In this document: one piece after another, positions 4,054 to 13,056 of the stretch
Layout of the letters: the number at the start of each line of letters is the position of its first letter
Numbering within the stretch: the first letter of the stretch is position 1
Origin: a virus
Lineage: Duplodnaviria; Heunggongvirae; Uroviricota; Caudoviricetes
Direction: 5' to 3' (one strand)
IMG/VR virus record: IMGVR_UViG_2740892031_000004
DNA: 15,282 nt
The notes under the pieces: generated by a model
Told to the model about the DNA's origin: nothing
Database searches by the model: none
The model's input: only the letters and a program-made list of their open reading frames with translations
Translations under genes and position numbers: made by a program

Positions 4054-6015
4054 TCATGCCGCGATGTCCGCGTTGTTCACTTCCACCTTCACACTGTCAA
4101 TCAGCAGCGTATATGTCGCCGCCTTTGATATGCCTGTCAGTTGCAGTTTGTCCGCCGCCCCTGATGCCGGAGATTTCACCAGTGTGAACGGCGTCCCCCG
4201 TTTCTCATCCAGTACCGGCGTCACCTGAATGCTGTTGTTTCCGGCAAACTCAAAAGCCAGTGTGTGCCATCCGTTATCAAAGACCCCGAACGTATCCAGC
4301 TTCGCATTCGGCTTCTTGTGGTGCATCGCGTTCAGGTTCGTCGCATCCGTCTGCAGGAAGAAGGACATCAGCATGTCGTTGCCTTCCTCTGCCAGCGTCA
4401 CTCCCTCCGGCAGGGACGACAACTGCCAGTAAATGCCCAGGGCAAACTGATTCGGCACCAGTGAACCCGGCAACTTAAACCGTACGCTCACACGTCCCCC
4501 CTTCTTCAGTAACTCCACTCCCTGTCCGGCTGCATCATGCTCCAGAAACCAGATGTGGTTTTCCGGTTTATTCAGTTGCAGGGCCTTACCTCCCGTAGCC
4601 CCCGCATCACTGACCACCGCTTCAGCAATGTTTTTGTTAACATTGTCTCCGCTCGCCGGTTTGTGATAATAGCGCCAGCCCTGTGATGCCAGGTCTTCGC
4701 CGGACGCCAGCAGACTCATCAGGGTTCGGTTACTGACCGGGGCTTCCGGCTCTCTCTCCGTACCTTCACCGGAAGGTCCGGTGGGCTTCACCGTATCAGG
4801 CTGTTTTCCGGTAATGAATTCAGCGTTTCTCCCGGCATGCACAAGAATCGCCGTTGCCAGACGGTCGGAAATAATCCCACGACGTGCCCATGATCCAAAA
4901 TGCGTTTTACGGTCGGCCGTCGTCCAGGTTTTGGCGTCCGTTCGACCACCGGCTCCGTAATACCCAATATCCGCAACATCCGGATCTTCTGACGGCTCGT
5001 TGGTACCCACATTTCGCCCGTTTTCATCCGTCATAAACGGCACAAAGAAGATTTTTTTTGCGGATTTCGTCTTGTATGCACCATACACCGCATCGTATTG
5101 CGAAGAATAAGTCTGCTTCCAGTAGTAGGTCGTGTCGCCACAAATCCAGGGAACCGATGACGGAGAGCCCCCGAGACACTGACCTCCGAATTCCGACAGG
5201 TCAGAACGATATTTTTCCACCATGGAATCAAACAGCCCCGGCTGAGTGGCGTATGCACCCTGTTTCAAATCAAACTCGCCCTGCATCCAGACCACTGCAA
5301 GCAGAATATTTTTAGGGTTGGCCTTCAGTGCGGCCTGAGTACGGGTAAGCAGGTCCTTGTACAGTGGCTTATCAACACCCCAGCGTGCCGAGGTCTCGCT
5401 TGCGCTGGTGGATTCGCTGAAGGTACCTTCATCGCCCGCCAAAAATGCAGAACCACCACGGCAGCACGGAACCAGAAGAATACCGGCATTCGCCGGAATA
5501 AACGGCAACAATTTCTTCGCGATATGTAATCCCTGCCCCACGCATCCATACTGAGCTGCGCTGGCTTTCGGGTGTGAAAACTTACTCAAATCCTGAACAT
5601 CATGCAGGCAGTGGTCCGCAGGAATAATGTCATTGTAGTTACAGGACGCACCACCCGGCGTGACAGTGCTGCGACGCGCCAGCTGTTTAATACGCGGGTC
5701 CGGACGGTCATATGTCTCCGGCAGCGGAAGCCCTTCACCATACGCCATACCGTTTGACCGCCCGGCTAGGGCAACAACAAAGTAATACTCCGGGTTGCTG
5801 GTGGTGCTGATAACTGCGCCTTCTCCATCCGACGGCTTCACCACCACAGGTGTGGTGACATCACCTTCCGCCGCAATGGCCTGCATCAGGGTATAAGGCG
5901 TGATGGCCACCGGACTGCCAAATGGCTGCCACCCCTCCTTCAGTTTTTGTGTCAGTCGTTTCGCAAGGTCTGACGGCGATGCCGCCCTGACAACATCATA
6001 GTGTTTAAATGCCAT
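4054..6015 (-). CDS. nanS-p: prophage NanS-p-type sialate O-acetylesterase (DUF1737 N-terminus plus SASA esterase region)
   Basis: 653 aa from ATG at 6013-6015 (ORF track gives 658 aa from 6030, which lacks an SD). N-terminus MAFKHYDVV...EGWQPFGSPV matches the DUF1737 pattern seen in the large yjhS/nanS-like proteins downstream of stx in EHEC prophages. Same position relative to Q and S as in Stx phages. Confidence 0.75.
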   Translation of the reverse strand: MAFKHYDVVRAASPSDLAKRLTQKLKEGWQPFGSPVAITPYTLMQAIAAEGDVTTPVVVKPSDGEGAVISTTSNPEYYFVVALAGRSNGMAYGEGLPLPETYDRPDPRIKQLARRSTVTPGGASCNYNDIIPADHCLHDVQDLSKFSHPKASAAQYGCVGQGLHIAKKLLPFIPANAGILLVPCCRGGSAFLAGDEGTFSESTSASETSARWGVDKPLYKDLLTRTQAALKANPKNILLAVVWMQGEFDLKQGAYATQPGLFDSMVEKYRSDLSEFGGQCLGGSPSSVPWICGDTTYYWKQTYSSQYDAVYGAYKTKSAKKIFFVPFMTDENGRNVGTNEPSEDPDVADIGYYGAGGRTDAKTWTTADRKTHFGSWARRGIISDRLATAILVHAGRNAEFITGKQPDTVKPTGPSGEGTEREPEAPVSNRTLMSLLASGEDLASQGWRYYHKPASGDNVNKNIAEAVVSDAGATGGKALQLNKPENHIWFLEHDAAGQGVELLKKGGRVSVRFKLPGSLVPNQFALGIYWQLSSLPEGVTLAEEGNDMLMSFFLQTDATNLNAMHHKKPNAKLDTFGVFDNGWHTLAFEFAGNNSIQVTPVLDEKRGTPFTLVKSPASGAADKLQLTGISKAATYTLLIDSVKVEVNNADIAA

Positions 6016-6208
6016 GGTTCTTTCCACCATCTGAAAAATAATTCTTTAAAATACCTGACATGTAATACAGAAAAAACACAAAACCATACCTTAAATAAAA
6101 ACCTCATCATCAAGCAGATATGCATGGATAAACTACAAGACGAGATATAAACCACCCTGCATTTAAATAAACAATAAACAACATCAGAAAAATAATTCTG
6201 CTCTATGG

Positions 6209-6235
6209 TTTACATTCAAAAATATCATTTATACT
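6209..6235 (+). promoter_or_regulatory. candidate sigma70 promoter for the AT-rich + strand ORF
   Basis: -35 TTTACA (6209-6214), 15-bp spacer, -10 TATACT (6230-6235), about 40 nt upstream of the ATG at 6276. Confidence 0.3.
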
Positions 6236-6275
6236 TTTCAGAACATCACCAGCAAGACATAAACAAGGAAACTAA

Positions 6276-6611
6276 ATGAAGTGGATTGTGATTGATACAG
6301 TTATCCAGCCATCATGCGGAATATCTTTTTCAGTCATATGGAGTAAAATAAAATTAATAATCTGGTATCAATCGGATGCTTTCTTACCTCCTGAAAGTAT
6401 ATTTACACTGACTCACACAGGTATCATGCTCAATAACAAAGTGCTACCTGTAACCATTTACAACGTAGCACCATTCAATAAAACATTCTGGAATTTAATC
6501 AAAAACAGCCAGGAATGTCCTACAAATACAGATAACGTATTGAATGAATGCTTTAATAACCGTTGCACTCTGCAAATATGTCCTTATGGACTAAAACAAC
6601 AAAGTCCATAA
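6276..6611 (+). CDS. hypothetical protein (111 aa) in an AT-rich islet; only convincing + strand gene outside IS2
   Basis: ATG at 6276 with AAGGA SD 6 nt upstream. The AT-rich coding sequence contrasts with flanking phage genes. C-terminal cysteine cluster (C81, C92, C97, C102). Stop codon lies inside a perfect 12-bp hairpin. No homolog recognised. Confidence 0.45.
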
Positions 6612-6614
6612 GGA
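6581..6614 (+). other. perfect 12-bp inverted repeat (hairpin) overlapping the stop of the + strand ORF
   Basis: TCCTTATGGACT (6581-6592), 10-nt loop, AGTCCATAAGGA (6603-6614). No strong U-tract on either side, so possibly a weak terminator or a protein-binding palindrome. Confidence 0.35.
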
Positions 6615-6625
6615 GTTTACTCACA

Positions 6626-6667
6626 TCTGACAAAATCAATATAAACAGCCCCTCCGGAGAGGGGCTG
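6626..6667 (-). terminator. candidate intrinsic terminator (minus strand)
   Basis: GC-rich 9-bp stem CAGCCCCTC / GAGGGGCTG (6646-6667) with 4-nt loop, followed on the minus strand by UUUAUAUUGAUUUUG. Confidence 0.4.
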
Positions 6668-6981
6668 GAGAGTGGCGCTATGTGCCATTGCATGATGCCG
6701 GGTGCCTCCCGGTGAGTTCAGTATCAGCACCTGAACCCGCACAGAAAGGATAAGGGTCGGTGACAAAACACCAGTTGCTGATTGCCCCTCCGCACAGGGG
6801 GATTCACCATGCCAGTTTCTTTTAACAAACTCCCCGCAAACCAGACAACAGTCAACCGCCTGAATTGTGAGGTATTTAAAAATTTCTCCAGATAACTGAT
6901 ACCCGGCTAACAGTCTGGCGTTTTCTTTTTCAGCAACGGGAAAGCAACAACCACCACACCCACCAGCCGCCCATTTACCAC

Positions 6982-7417: not shown

Positions 7418-7972
7418 TCAAAAAGCAATAACTTTTTCCTCTATACCAAAAGCCATAACCATTGGTTTGTACAAAATAAATTCTGCCACCTTTAGCCAAT
7501 GCTCAATGCGTCTTTCACAGGTTCTTAAACTCCATTCCGGGTGTGCATCATTCAGCAGTTCAGCCATTTTGCGCTTAGTCATCCCCCGCCCCACATAACG
7601 CTGACTCAGGACATTGAGCAGCCCGGGATAGCCTGCCAGGACTTCACCAATAACCCTGTCGATTATTAACGCCTCTGAATCGGTACAATGTGCCAGCCAG
7701 CTTTTTTGATTGCCGTTGATCATATCCCGCAAAAAAGCCTCAAGTTCAGGTTTGTCCAGACCAGCTTTTTTCATCCTCCGGAGCGCCTCGTTAATTGCCG
7801 TTTTTGTCAGCTTTTTAGAGGTCAGTAATTGGTTGAACATATTTCCCGTCTTACCGCCGCCAATATACGACCACCGCCCCCACATCCGTAATTTCCCCTG
7901 GATCCAGACTGCTTCCAGCGTTTTTAGACGTAAATGCTCGCCGCTTTTGCCTGTAATTTCCGGATATATCAT
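7418..7972 (-). CDS. Q: late-gene antiterminator Q (Phage_antitermQ-like)
   Basis: 184 aa from ATG at 7970-7972 (ORF track starts at GTG 7984, overlapping the rusA stop). Sits directly upstream of a terminator and the lysis genes, and downstream of rusA. Family call is from recalled Q sequences. Confidence 0.75.
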   Translation of the reverse strand: MIYPEITGKSGEHLRLKTLEAVWIQGKLRMWGRWSYIGGGKTGNMFNQLLTSKKLTKTAINEALRRMKKAGLDKPELEAFLRDMINGNQKSWLAHCTDSEALIIDRVIGEVLAGYPGLLNVLSQRYVGRGMTKRKMAELLNDAHPEWSLRTCERRIEHWLKVAEFILYKPMVMAFGIEEKVIAF

Positions 7973-7980
7973 ATTTACGC

Positions 7981-8340
7981 TCACTCACTCTCAATTTTGT
8001 AAATCTTCACACCCAGCCGTCCACCAGATACTGGCTGACCACGTACAATATTGATTTCATCAAACTGCTCATCGTCCATTAACACTCCCGCATGCGTCAG
8101 CGCATCCAGCGGTGCTTTCAGGATATTGTCCAGGTCGCGACGACGCTTATCCGGTGGCTCTGCAATCACCTTTATCGCCAGCCTTCCGGACAGGCTTAAT
8201 TTCAGCCGCTGCTGGCGAACAATAAGCGCCACAGCCCGGCGATAACGCTTTCCCTCCTCCGAGATAAAATATGTGCTGCCACGGCGTCGCCAGTAAGTGT
8301 TCACCGTCGGCGGGTAAGGTAAAACCAAATCTATGAGCAT
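7981..8340 (-). CDS. rusA: Holliday-junction resolvase RusA
   Basis: 119 aa; core motifs match recalled E. coli RusA (PDKRRRDLDNILKAPLDALTHAGVLMDDEQ vs [30 protein letters not shown]; GGRL near the C-terminus). Confidence 0.9.
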   Translation of the reverse strand: MLIDLVLPYPPTVNTYWRRRGSTYFISEEGKRYRRAVALIVRQQRLKLSLSGRLAIKVIAEPPDKRRRDLDNILKAPLDALTHAGVLMDDEQFDEINIVRGQPVSGGRLGVKIYKIESE

Positions 8341-9403: not shown

Positions 9404-9682
9404 TTACCTCCAGATGCGTTGCTGGAATGTGCGGGACGGACGCGGTGGGCGTTCGGAGTAAGGAAGCCTGACGGAGATTATCCAGTGACGATAATCGAGG
9501 CTGAGGGCTTTCTTAATCTCGTATCCGTGTCTGCGGTAGCACTGAATTAGCCACTCGGCCTGTTCTTCAGTGCATGGGGGATGCTGGAACCAGTCAGATT
9601 TGAAAGTGCGGGAACACCGCCCGTGCCTGCTGGCAAAGACGGCAGAATCATCAGAATTGTGTAATTTGGTATCGTGCGCCAT
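9404..9682 (-). CDS. small hypothetical protein (92 aa), positionally rem-like
   Basis: ATG at 9680-9682; the ORF-track N-terminal extension (GTG 9811) would run through the hok terminator, so the internal ATG is preferred. Lies between hok and the DUF968 gene as rem does in Qin; sequence identity not confirmed. Confidence 0.45.
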   Translation of the reverse strand: MAHDTKLHNSDDSAVFASRHGRCSRTFKSDWFQHPPCTEEQAEWLIQCYRRHGYEIKKALSLDYRHWIISVRLPYSERPPRPSRTFQQRIWR

Positions 9683-9750
9683 CGGTTGTCTCTGCTGGCG
9701 CAGCAGGTGCCAGTTGTTCAGGCTGGCGTGCGAATTGTAAACCAGAATGC

Positions 9751-9781
9751 CAGGAAAAAACAAAACCCGCCGAAGCGGGTT
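9751..9781 (-). terminator. intrinsic terminator ending the hok transcript
   Basis: Stem AACCCGC / GCGGGTT (9764-9781) with CGAA loop; on the minus strand followed by TTGTTTTTTCC. About 70 nt downstream of the hok stop. Confidence 0.6.
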
Positions 9782-9848
9782 AAGTGCGGGTGCGTTGAGG
9801 ATGCCTGACACATCAGAGGTGGCGAGGGATTCTCCCCCGCCTGGTCTC

Positions 9849-10004
9849 TTACTCCTCAGGTTCGTAAGCTGTGAAGACAGTGACCTCCGTCTGGCCGGTT
9901 CGGATTCGTACCTCGCAGAGGTCTTTCCTCGTTACCAGTGCCGTCATTATGACGGTTAAACAGATGACGATCAGGGCGATTAACATCGCCTTTTGCTGCT
10001 TCAT
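9849..10004 (-). CDS. hokD: Hok/Gef-family type I toxin (51 aa)
   Basis: Minus-strand translation MKQQKAMLIALIVICLTVIMTALVTRKDLCEVRIRTGQTEVTVFTAYEPEE matches the Hok family and is nearly identical to my recollection of HokD/RelF. AAGGAG SD 9 nt upstream of the ATG at 10002-10004. Below the 60-aa cutoff, so absent from the ORF track. Confidence 0.85.
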   Translation of the reverse strand: MKQQKAMLIALIVICLTVIMTALVTRKDLCEVRIRTGQTEVTVFTAYEPEE

Positions 10005-10260
10005 AGCCTGCTTCTCCTTGACCTTTCGGTCCGTAAGAGGCTAATCTCTATGTGTCGCATAGATATGGCCTCAGATTAATGTTAAGCGTCTTGCAGGACC
10101 GCGTAATGTTAACTGGGGCTTTTCTCTATCTGCCTTTTGGTGTTCATGCCTGAGACAGATAGCCTCAAGCACCCGCAGTCATTCTACTTAACTAAGATTT
10201 CCCCGCAAACCGTTTTTGTCCGGCACAGTAAATATCCAACTAAACCAATGGCGTTCGCTG
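10005..10260 (-). promoter_or_regulatory. hok mRNA leader region (expected site of mok overlap and sok-type antisense control)
   Basis: Non-coding stretch upstream of hok. Hok loci normally carry a long structured leader with an antisense RNA; the individual elements were not resolved here. Confidence 0.3.
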
Positions 10261-10263
10261 TAT

Positions 10264-10443
10264 TTACCGCCAGTATTCAATGCACATGACCGCCATGAAC
10301 ACCCCTAAAAAAAGGGCATTTATATGTCCAAACATTAATATCAAAACATCAACTTTTTCCATATACCTTGCTGTGAAGATGATGGGCATACATGATGCGA
10401 ACAACCAGAACGCAACAAACAAAAACTGCAATGCGTTTTTCAT
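10264..10443 (-). CDS. small membrane peptide (59 aa, two hydrophobic helices) in an AT-rich islet
   Basis: ATG at 10441-10443 with GGGGGA upstream; MKNALQFLFVAFWLFASCMPIIFTARYMEKVDVLILMFGHINALFLGVFMAVMCIEYWR. Flanked by AT-rich non-coding sequence (10444-10613). Confidence 0.4.
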   Translation of the reverse strand: MKNALQFLFVAFWLFASCMPIIFTARYMEKVDVLILMFGHINALFLGVFMAVMCIEYWR

Positions 10444-10613
10444 TATTCCCCCTACAATCAATGTGCAATAACATTTAAACACACCTCAATTTGGCCGGAC
10501 ATATAAATATCTAAACCAGAAAAAATCACTTACATAGCGTTACAAACTCTTTAGTCTAAATATTCATCGCAAAATATTCCCCATACTTATCAGCCCGTTC
10601 TGCGCCAGGTAGC

Positions 10614-10928
10614 TCATTGCCTTATCTGGGAATCTGTAATCAGGTTTCCGGATGCTGGTGGATTTTCGCGTTTTAGTTGTTCATAAAAGTGCACAGCTTT
10701 AACCAGTTCTTCTGATGTCACCGGAACTGGCGGGGCAGCGAATAAGGCCTGAATTTCATAGTTCGGCCTGTCGTTGCAATCCTCTTTTGTCGGTACATAT
10801 TTCCAGTCACCAACCCACAGATTCTCCTGAAAGTCCGTAACGCCTTTTTTCACGTAGCGATATCGCCATGCAACTGGTTTTGCCTGCCCTGCCGTTTCAT
10901 GCCCTTCCTGATAATTAATCTCGCTCAT
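10614..10928 (-). CDS. hypothetical phage protein (104 aa) with MSEINYQ N-terminus
   Basis: ATG at 10926-10928 overlaps the upstream gene stop (ATGA). Shares its first 7 codons with the Ea22-like gene at 13657. Confidence 0.6.
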   Translation of the reverse strand: MSEINYQEGHETAGQAKPVAWRYRYVKKGVTDFQENLWVGDWKYVPTKEDCNDRPNYEIQALFAAPPVPVTSEELVKAVHFYEQLKRENPPASGNLITDSQIRQ

Positions 10929-11658: not shown

Positions 11659-11749
11659 TAGACTGGCCCCCTGAATCTCCAGACAACCAATATCACTTAT
11701 TTAAGTGATAGTCTTAATACTAGTTTTTAGACTAGTCATTGGAGAACAG

Positions 11750-12115
11750 ATGATTGATGTCTTAGGGCCGGAGAAACGCAGACGGCGTACCACACAGGAA
11801 AAGATCGCAATTGTTCAGCAGAGCTTTGAACCGGGGATGACGGTCTCCCTCGTTGCCCGGCAACATGGTGTAGCAGCCAGCCAGTTATTTCTCTGGCGTA
11901 AGCAATACCAGGAAGGAAGTCTTACTGCTGTCGCCGCCGGAGAACAGGTTGTTCCTGCCTCTGAACTTGCTGCCGCCATGAAGCAGATTAAAGAACTCCA
12001 GCGCCTGCTCGGCAAGAAAACGATGGAAAATGAACTCCTCAAAGAAGCCGTTGAATATGGACGGGCAAAAAAGTGGATAGCGCACGCGCCCTTATTGCCC
12101 GGGGATGGGGAGTAA
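11750..12115 (+). CDS. insC: IS2 OrfA (InsC)
   Basis: 121 aa, [40 protein letters not shown]... matches recalled InsC. ORF track starts at an upstream GTG (11705). Confidence 0.9.
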
Positions 12116-12978
12116 GCTTAGTCAGCCGTTGTCTCCGGGTGTCGCGTGCGCAGTTGCACGTCATTCTCAGACGAACCGATGACTGGATGGATGGCCGCCG
12201 CAGTCGTCACACTGATGATACGGATGTGCTTCTCCGTATACACCATGTTATCGGAGAGCTGCCCACGTATGGTTATCGTCGGGTATGGGCGCTGCTTCGC
12301 AGACAGGCAGAACTTGATGGTATGCCTGCGATCAATGCCAAACGTGTTTACCGGATCATGCGCCAGAATGCGCTGTTGCTTGAGCGAAAACCTGCTGTAC
12401 CGCCATCGAAACGGGCACATACAGGCAGAGTGGCCGTGAAAGAAAGCAATCAGCGATGGTGCTCTGACGGGTTCGAGTTCTGCTGTGATAACGGAGAGAG
12501 ACTGCGTGTCACGTTCGCGCTGGACTGCTGTGATCGTGAGGCACTGCACTGGGCGGTCACTACCGGCGGCTTCAACAGTGAAACAGTACAGGACGTCATG
12601 CTGGGAGCGGTGGAACGCCGCTTCGGCAACGATCTTCCGTCGTCTCCAGTGGAGTGGCTGACGGATAATGGTTCATGCTACCGGGCTAATGAAACACGCC
12701 AGTTCGCCCGGATGTTGGGACTTGAACCGAAGAACACGGCGGTGCGGAGTCCGGAGAGTAACGGAATAGCAGAGAGCTTCGTGAAAACGATAAAGCGTGA
12801 CTACATCAGTATCATGCCCAAACCAGACGGGTTAACGGCAGCAAAGAACCTTGCAGAGGCGTTCGAGCATTATAACGAATGGCATCCGCATAGTGCGCTG
12901 GGTTATCGCTCGCCACGGGAATATCTGCGGCAGCGGGCTTGTAATGGGTTAAGTGATAACAGATGTCTGGAAATATAG
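12073..12978 (+). CDS. insD: IS2 OrfB transposase (InsD), DDE-type
   Basis: 301 aa, [34 protein letters not shown]... matches recalled InsD; overlaps insC as expected for the frameshift-fused IS3-family transposase. Confidence 0.9.
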
Positions 12979-12989
12979 GGGCAAATCCA

Positions 12990-12994
12990 GAGGG
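12990..12994. repeat. IS2 target-site duplication, right copy (GAGGG)
   Basis: Identical to 11654-11658. Confidence 0.8.
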
Positions 12995-13056
12995 TCATCC
13001 TCTTTTACCGGAAATAAAACGATATTGCTTAACTCATCCTCTGGTTTTATTTCCAT
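12990..13056 (-). pseudogene. N-terminal part (22 codons) of the IS2-split gene
   Basis: ATG at 13054-13056 with GGAGAGGAG upstream; MEIKPEDELSNIVLFPVKEDDP then the IS2 end. Overlaps the last 23 nt of the Ea22-like gene. Confidence 0.6.

Follow-up and report, generated by a model that had tools for sequence, protein, structure and literature searches.

Small proteins with two membrane spans are known from several settings. T4 Imm, at 83 aa, has two membrane spans and blocks DNA entry. The E. coli membrane toxins GhoT and OrtT are of ~57 aa and also span the membrane twice, as do the class II holins and pinholins, at ~65–75 aa. Hok/Gef peptides (~50 aa) have a single span. Here we analysed a stretch of 15,282 nucleotides, hereafter the window, in which a 59-aa open reading frame (ORF) lies in AT-rich DNA next to a hok gene. 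Its translation is MKNALQFLFVAFWLFASCMPIIFTARYMEKVDVLILMFGHINALFLGVFMAVMCIEYWR. That it is an uncharacterised, ordinary small hypothetical gene of a familiar class, the small phage membrane proteins, is well supported.

The islet and its surroundings in a lambdoid prophage

The window comes from a lambdoid prophage of E. coli. Around the AT-rich islet, 551 bases are 100% identical to strain Eco889 and to many other chromosomes, and the minus-strand genes of the window follow the usual lambdoid early-right order. The 59-aa ORF is on the same strand as these early genes and sits between the Ea-type genes and hok/DUF968/RusA/Q. Read along the minus strand, the features are:

Minus strand: Ead/Ea22-like gene, first in the early-right order, followed by an IS2 copy (plus strand)
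Minus strand, between the IS2 copy and the islet: zinc-ribbon ORF, then DUF7167, a 56-aa ORF and a 104-aa ORF
10444..10599, minus: presumed 5' leader, AT-rich and untranslated, GC 0.37, lying between the 104-aa gene (stop at 10614) and the 59-aa ORF
10448..10453, minus: Shine-Dalgarno-like AGGGGG, 4 nt before the ATG, read from the sequence
10264..10443, minus: 59-aa ORF (type A), ATG at 10443, TAA at 10266-10264; predicted two-helix inner-membrane protein
10222..10263, minus: spacer from the ORF stop to the hok promoter block
10175..10221, minus: hok promoter region, with -35 TTTGCG/TTGCGG at ~10204-10209 and -10 TAGAAT at 10181-10186
10002..10174, minus: hok mRNA 5' leader with mok start and sok antisense region (Rfam RF01794)
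9849..10004, minus: hokD CDS (51 aa); the identical Eco889 DNA is annotated hokD, WP_000813254.1
9764..9781, minus: terminator-like hairpin with T-run, ~410 nt from the hok mRNA start
Minus strand, beyond the islet: hokD, then DUF968/YdfU, RusA and a Q-type antiterminator

Windowed GC bore out the sharp change to AT-rich DNA that a first-pass annotation had described at this point, with values of 0.37 in the islet against 0.47–0.51 in its flanks. Over 10264–10613 the GC content is 0.377, among the lowest 4% of 350-nt windows, and over the islet as defined by homology (10222–10599) it is 0.370, varying between 0.35 and 0.38 across it. For comparison, the whole window has a GC content of 0.498, the hok locus 0.513 and the upstream 104-aa gene 0.467. 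The islet is the second-deepest GC trough of the window. The deepest, at ~5872–6700, reaches values as low as 0.30 and contains a 111-aa plus-strand ORF (6276–6611) that runs opposite to its neighbours, has no Pfam match, and shares its length and orientation with the IraM gene annotated in Eco889; this trough looks like a better moron candidate than the islet of the 59-aa ORF.

The islet has definable borders. On its upstream side, homology with related prophages stops at ~10593–10599. On the hok side, hok loci without the islet lose homology to the window at 10193 or 10221. The breaks on both sides mark the islet as a discrete unit of ~380 bp. Folding of its flanking RNA gave no significant structure, either in the leader (10444..10599; z = -0.2 versus shuffles) or in the spacer (10222..10263; z = -0.65), which also contains no terminator, and an Rfam scan of 9700–10800 at a permissive threshold found nothing credible inside the islet. 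Two repeats were seen, each of which may be due to chance in AT-rich DNA: an imperfect 25-nt direct repeat (72% identical) that flanks the ORF, at 10215–10239 and 10490–10514, and a perfect 12-nt inverted repeat between the ORF (10318–10329) and its leader (10497–10508).

Elsewhere in the window, an IS2-like element at ~11700–13030 (plus strand, with ORFs at 11705–12115 and 12073–12978) splits the minus-strand cluster of Ea-type genes; Eco889, identical around the islet, has no IS annotation at that position. A full-length Rfam match to the STnc100 sRNA (RF02076; 133.5 bits, gathering score 47) lies on the minus strand at 6637–6841, downstream of the Q-type antiterminator gene (7418–7984). Downstream of hok the gene model is uncertain: the C-terminal 66 residues of a 135-aa minus-strand ORF (9404–9811) match phrog_1212 (E = 4e-35), and RefSeq places just a 273-bp CDS and an overlapping 180-bp plus-strand CDS there.

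Conservation and predicted structure of the 59-codon frame

The first-pass annotation had taken the 59-aa frame to be the only ORF of the islet. It is not, as a GTG-extended 72-aa form, a 63-aa plus-strand ORF (10280–10471) and a 41-aa minus-strand ORF are also present; of the islet ORFs, however, it is the only one that is conserved. The 63-aa plus-strand ORF, which is called 'hornerin' in two phage records, was rejected as a gene, having two stops in the paralogue described below. SMP7, a 192-nt sORF of the same length reported in a CFT073 Ribo-seq preprint (10.64898/2026.09.28.754932), was likewise rejected as a match to the islet: its sequence is unrelated and lies in a microcin island.

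The extreme hydrophobicity and the Shine-Dalgarno sequence described for the 59-aa ORF both held up, with a GRAVY of 1.19 and AGGGGG 4 nt before the ATG. Among random strings with the composition of the islet, 1.1% run for 59 codons without a stop, and 4.4% of the stop-free strings have a GRAVY of at least 1.19 (null GRAVY 0.49, P = 0.044).

Conservation, which the first-pass annotation had suggested searching for, was found at the level of the protein. A tblastn search of plasmid-labelled records returned a 44%-identical match across all 59 residues, in what is chromosomal DNA between ttcA and uspF (L003:3001-3180). This paralogue, which we call type B, has exactly 59 codons. Its DNA aligns with that of the window copy (type A) without gaps at 62% identity, in an alignment whose first position is the ATG itself and which extends to 22 nt past the stop; upstream of the ATG the two are unalignable. 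Those last 22 nt (10242–10263 against L003:3181-3202) are identical at 16 positions, although the upstream DNA cannot be aligned. Each ATG is preceded by a G-run within AT-rich DNA, in type B an AGGGA 6 nt before the ATG.

When six frames were compared, the sense frame alone was open in both types. Between them, pN is 0.32 and pS 0.72. The amino-acid identity is 26/59 against 17.6–19.3 in the nulls, and the BLOSUM62 score is 163 against 46–49 (sd 18–19), some 6 sd above expectation and reached in 0/20000 randomisations; the nulls for both measures came from column shuffles and random-mutation trials (20000). The probability of the frame staying open by chance ranged from 0.0004 (column shuffle, both copies) to 0.03 (random mutation, window ORF). 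Differences by codon position were 24/17/30, a skew that is not significant alone. Within the subfamilies, where divergence stays under 5% and few sites vary, polymorphism gave no purifying signal (7 nonsynonymous and 1 synonymous in type A, 2 and 0 in type B). In the collected set, all copies were intact, 151/151 of type A and 12/12 of type B. With only two lineages, these amount to effectively two independent observations. Still, the equal length, the homology that starts at the ATG, the single shared open frame, the excess of pS over pN and the BLOSUM62 score together are good evidence for selection at the protein level, and we consider it highly likely that the ORF is a genuine membrane-protein gene.

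Runs of seven T and of four G lie within the ORF (codons 44–48, ~10302–10320, minus strand). Rare frameshifted database proteins (P0019, P0020 and P0024) shift at these runs, for which sequencing error is a possible cause; the T-run is absent from the paralogue at the matching position and so is not conserved. Copies disrupted by IS elements also occur in databases, and in other genomes IS-end sequence is fused into the ORF (for example, P0035).

Sequence and structure predictions describe the product as a hairpin in the membrane. Kyte-Doolittle analysis gave two peaks above 2.0, at about residues 4–25 and 31–55, and AF2, run on an eight-sequence alignment, placed helices at 2–26 and 28–58 (pLDDT 73). 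Together with the conservation of the paralogue, these predictions favour the earlier description of the ORF as a probable gene for a small two-helix membrane peptide. The invariant columns are W13, S17, C18, P20, I21, I22, T24, L36, F38, G39, N42, A43, L44, E56, W58 and R59. One face of helix 2 carries a ladder of small residues in the small-xxx-small pattern (G39, A43, G47, A/S51), and a polar cluster is formed at matching depth by S17, C18, P20 and T24 of helix 1 and H/Y40 and N42 of helix 2. We infer that these helices may pack on their own copies or on a partner membrane protein, of which such a ladder and cluster are typical. The N-terminus is charged (K2, or R2 and K3) and the loop at 25–32 is acidic or neutral; from these charges, the topology is probably N-in/C-in with loop 25–32 in the periplasm.

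Both subfamilies sit in lambdoid prophage DNA. Type A is present in ~1550 of 5426 complete E. coli genomes (~29%), in all at 95% identity or more, and type B in 1045 (~19%), in 1020 of which the DNA of the locus is at least 99% identical. The locus that hosts type B is a decayed prophage remnant with an integrase fragment, a DUF1627 fragment and a frameshifted metal-transporter permease, in surroundings of 31–33% GC. Upstream of type B an extended -10 element, TGaTATAAT, was found by eye at L003:2918-2926, ~75 nt before the ATG; this apparent promoter would fit expression in the lysogen better than read-through. The same remnant holds a second very hydrophobic ORF, of 55 aa, on the opposite strand ~390 nt downstream of type B (L003:3569-3736, minus strand).

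Neither type is called in the RefSeq/PGAP annotation, and the ORF is thus very probably, on the comparisons above, a real gene that RefSeq misses; some GenBank submissions label the protein 'hypothetical protein' or 'membrane protein'. An exhaustive HMM search of 1.84 billion protein representatives returned, beyond the two E. coli subfamilies and their fragments, only two long repetitive proteins, which we regard as spurious. No third subfamily was found in the GTDB species set, in IMG/VR or in a metagenome scan, and in the profile search and these three collections the family members came from E. coli/Shigella or gut metagenomes only. The 59-aa protein matched no family in Pfam (at E <= 1), PHROGs or NCBIfam, and neither subfamily matched the PADLOC defence-system profiles at E <= 1. 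A profile search of PDB sequences gave nothing at E <= 10, and a Foldseek search of the AF2 hairpin against BFVD and PDB returned non-specific helical hairpins only (best E ~1.3). A literature search by peptide strings did not find the sequence in any paper.

The neighbouring hok/sok locus

The first-pass annotation had considered that the region might simply be the promoter and leader of hok. The Rfam sok model (RF01794) matched over its full length (1–157) with 106.4 bits against a gathering score of 59, and it matched only 10174–10002, downstream of the islet. The promoter hexamers, which reached 8 of 12 matches in our own scan, lie within 10181–10209, in a promoter region (10175..10221) that is common to hok loci without the islet. 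With the leader bounded at 10174, and with islet-less loci diverging at 10193–10221, the islet lies outside both elements and, by these boundaries, is separate from them.

The ORF and hok are nevertheless close companions. In all 128 type A loci with enough flank, the hok promoter and leader come next after the ORF, at a spacing of 43 nt in 127. Upstream, the 104-aa gene is present in 136 of 147 loci. The hok CDS is present in 99 of 123 type A loci; in the other 24 it is missing or disrupted and the 59-aa ORF is intact. At L081:3443-4828, for example, an IS element lies just past the hok start codon, and both the hok leader and the upstream ORF are intact. Disruption of hok in loci of this kind resembles the inactivation of the chromosomal hok genes of K-12. 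Genomes that match the DNA proximal to the hok promoter exceed the carriers of the islet by ~700, and islet-less hokD loci carry at its position QueH, a 396-bp ORF or, in LF82, an FRG-domain gene. A transcriptome of the LF82 Tritos lysogen (PMC9928086) covers this hokD locus without the islet and is therefore uninformative on the 59-aa ORF. At the type B locus, neither hok nor sok was found within 1–2 kb. That the ORF always lies next to hok is most readily explained by two small cargo modules being physically linked and moving as a pair.

Expression, role and likeness to known systems

Flanking the window copy, we found neither a sigma-70 promoter (at least 9 of 12 matches) nor an intrinsic terminator. 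The gene is in line with the early genes of the prophage, and the label 'moron', which the first-pass annotation had applied, does not suit it in the strict sense. The lack of a promoter and terminator of its own, together with its alignment with the early-right genes, makes read-through of the operon the most likely source of its expression. The window copy would be made after induction, as transcription passed in order through Ea22-like, DUF7167, the 56-aa and 104-aa genes, the 59-aa gene, hok/sok, DUF968, RusA and Q. The 59-residue product would then insert into the inner membrane as a helical hairpin, and its second helix may self-associate or bind a partner. It would serve as an accessory membrane protein of the phage, with either the permeability of the membrane or an envelope protein of the host as its target, during host takeover or superinfection exclusion. 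We consider this explanation as a whole, that is, a hairpin gene read through from the operon, with an accessory membrane role and no part in hok/sok, to be reasonably probable from what the sequences suggest. Any one specific role for the protein is considerably less probable.

An involvement with hok was proposed in the first-pass annotation, as a regulator of the adjacent gene. In such a partnership, the peptide or its transcript would modulate Hok, as a co-toxin, as an immunity factor or by read-through into the hok promoter. The unbroken association of type A with the hok promoter and leader fits this idea, as does the lack of a terminator between the ORF and hok. The paralogue, however, does without hok or sok in its vicinity, hok has its promoter-proximal DNA in ~700 more genomes, with QueH or other genes instead of the islet in the hok loci sampled, and the ORF stays intact in the 24 loci whose hok CDS is lost or interrupted, even where an IS element has destroyed it. 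These three observations disfavour a hok regulator, which we regard as a highly doubtful reading; we favour a phage accessory inner-membrane protein over it. Equally improbable, in our judgement, is that the islet is a non-coding AT-rich junction (a spacer, H-NS-bound DNA or an upstream element of hok) with an ORF that arose by chance from its T-rich strand. T-rich DNA does readily yield hydrophobic ORFs, as the null GRAVY given above illustrates, the ORF is uncalled by RefSeq and without family matches, and the type A polymorphism is mostly nonsynonymous. A chance ORF would not be expected to have a paralogue of equal length, homologous from the ATG onwards, with one shared open frame and a BLOSUM score ~6 sd above the null; moreover, hok loci function with wholly different DNA in place of the islet, and the flanking RNA has neither significant structure nor an Rfam match.

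A stand-alone membrane toxin would depolarise or permeabilise the inner membrane in the manner of GhoT/OrtT or the type I toxins, and would be silenced by low expression or by H-NS on the AT-rich DNA. The protein is small and very hydrophobic, with two predicted helices and a ladder that resembles a glycine zipper, it is the neighbour of another membrane toxin, and some copies carry IS insertions or frameshifts, as chromosomal hok genes do. On the other side, the plus strand across the ORF has no promoter-like site (at least 9/12) and no terminator-like site in a sequence scan, which weak promoters may escape, and no antitoxin-like ORF is adjacent. Pfam gave no match to GhoT/OrtT, Hok or any other toxin family at E <= 1. 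Type B is intact in 12/12 copies; no partner gene can be seen beside it, a good promoter-like element precedes it, and its locus is nearly invariant (at least 99% identical DNA) across 1020 genomes. Persistence in this state would be unexpected for a potent toxin. We regard a toxin as unlikely. A broader proposal, which we also hold to be doubtful, is that the two subfamilies form a new family of two-helix membrane peptides, specific to E. coli/Shigella and oligomerising, with a pore-forming or depolarising effect or an effect on superinfection exclusion, one copy of which would have been domesticated in phylogroup B2, intact and with its own promoter, in the decayed remnant at ttcA.

Returning to the accessory membrane protein that we prefer, its recognition would add one gene to the annotation of ~29% (type A) and ~19% (type B) of complete E. 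coli genomes. It also provides a clean, testable case in which a small membrane protein of a prophage is carried along with a hok/sok module. Should an exclusion or membrane-active phenotype prove true, the protein would be a new family for the catalogues of small proteins and of phage defence.

How does the 59-aa protein compare with known systems? Like phage morons, the islet differs in composition from its neighbours (GC 0.37 versus 0.47–0.51 in the flanks), but the window copy, unlike an autonomous cassette, lacks its own upstream promoter and downstream terminator. With Hok/Gef the peptide shares its small size, its hydrophobicity and its prophage location, and it forms one travelling block with hok. 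It differs from the single-span Hok/Gef peptides in having two predicted helices and no Hok match in Pfam or NCBIfam at E <= 1, and no mok-like overlapping frame, antisense RNA or long folded leader was detected for the ORF. GhoT and OrtT are near-equal to it in size, and resemble it in its two predicted spans and its extreme hydrophobicity; the 59-aa protein, however, has no Pfam match (E <= 1) and no GhoS-like partner, and it is encoded in prophage DNA rather than the core chromosome. The two hydrophobic helices and the small-residue packing motifs are shared with class II holins and pinholins. Its gene, though, is placed between the replication genes and Q in the early region rather than in the lysis cassette, such prophages have their own class II holin elsewhere, and the protein has no holin match in Pfam or PHROGs. 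Finally, although it has no detectable sequence or fold-specific similarity to peptides of the T4 Imm type, and although the window copy lacks its own promoter, the 59-aa protein is, like those superinfection-exclusion or host-takeover peptides, a small, predicted two-helix hairpin encoded in a phage accessory region with a narrow host range.
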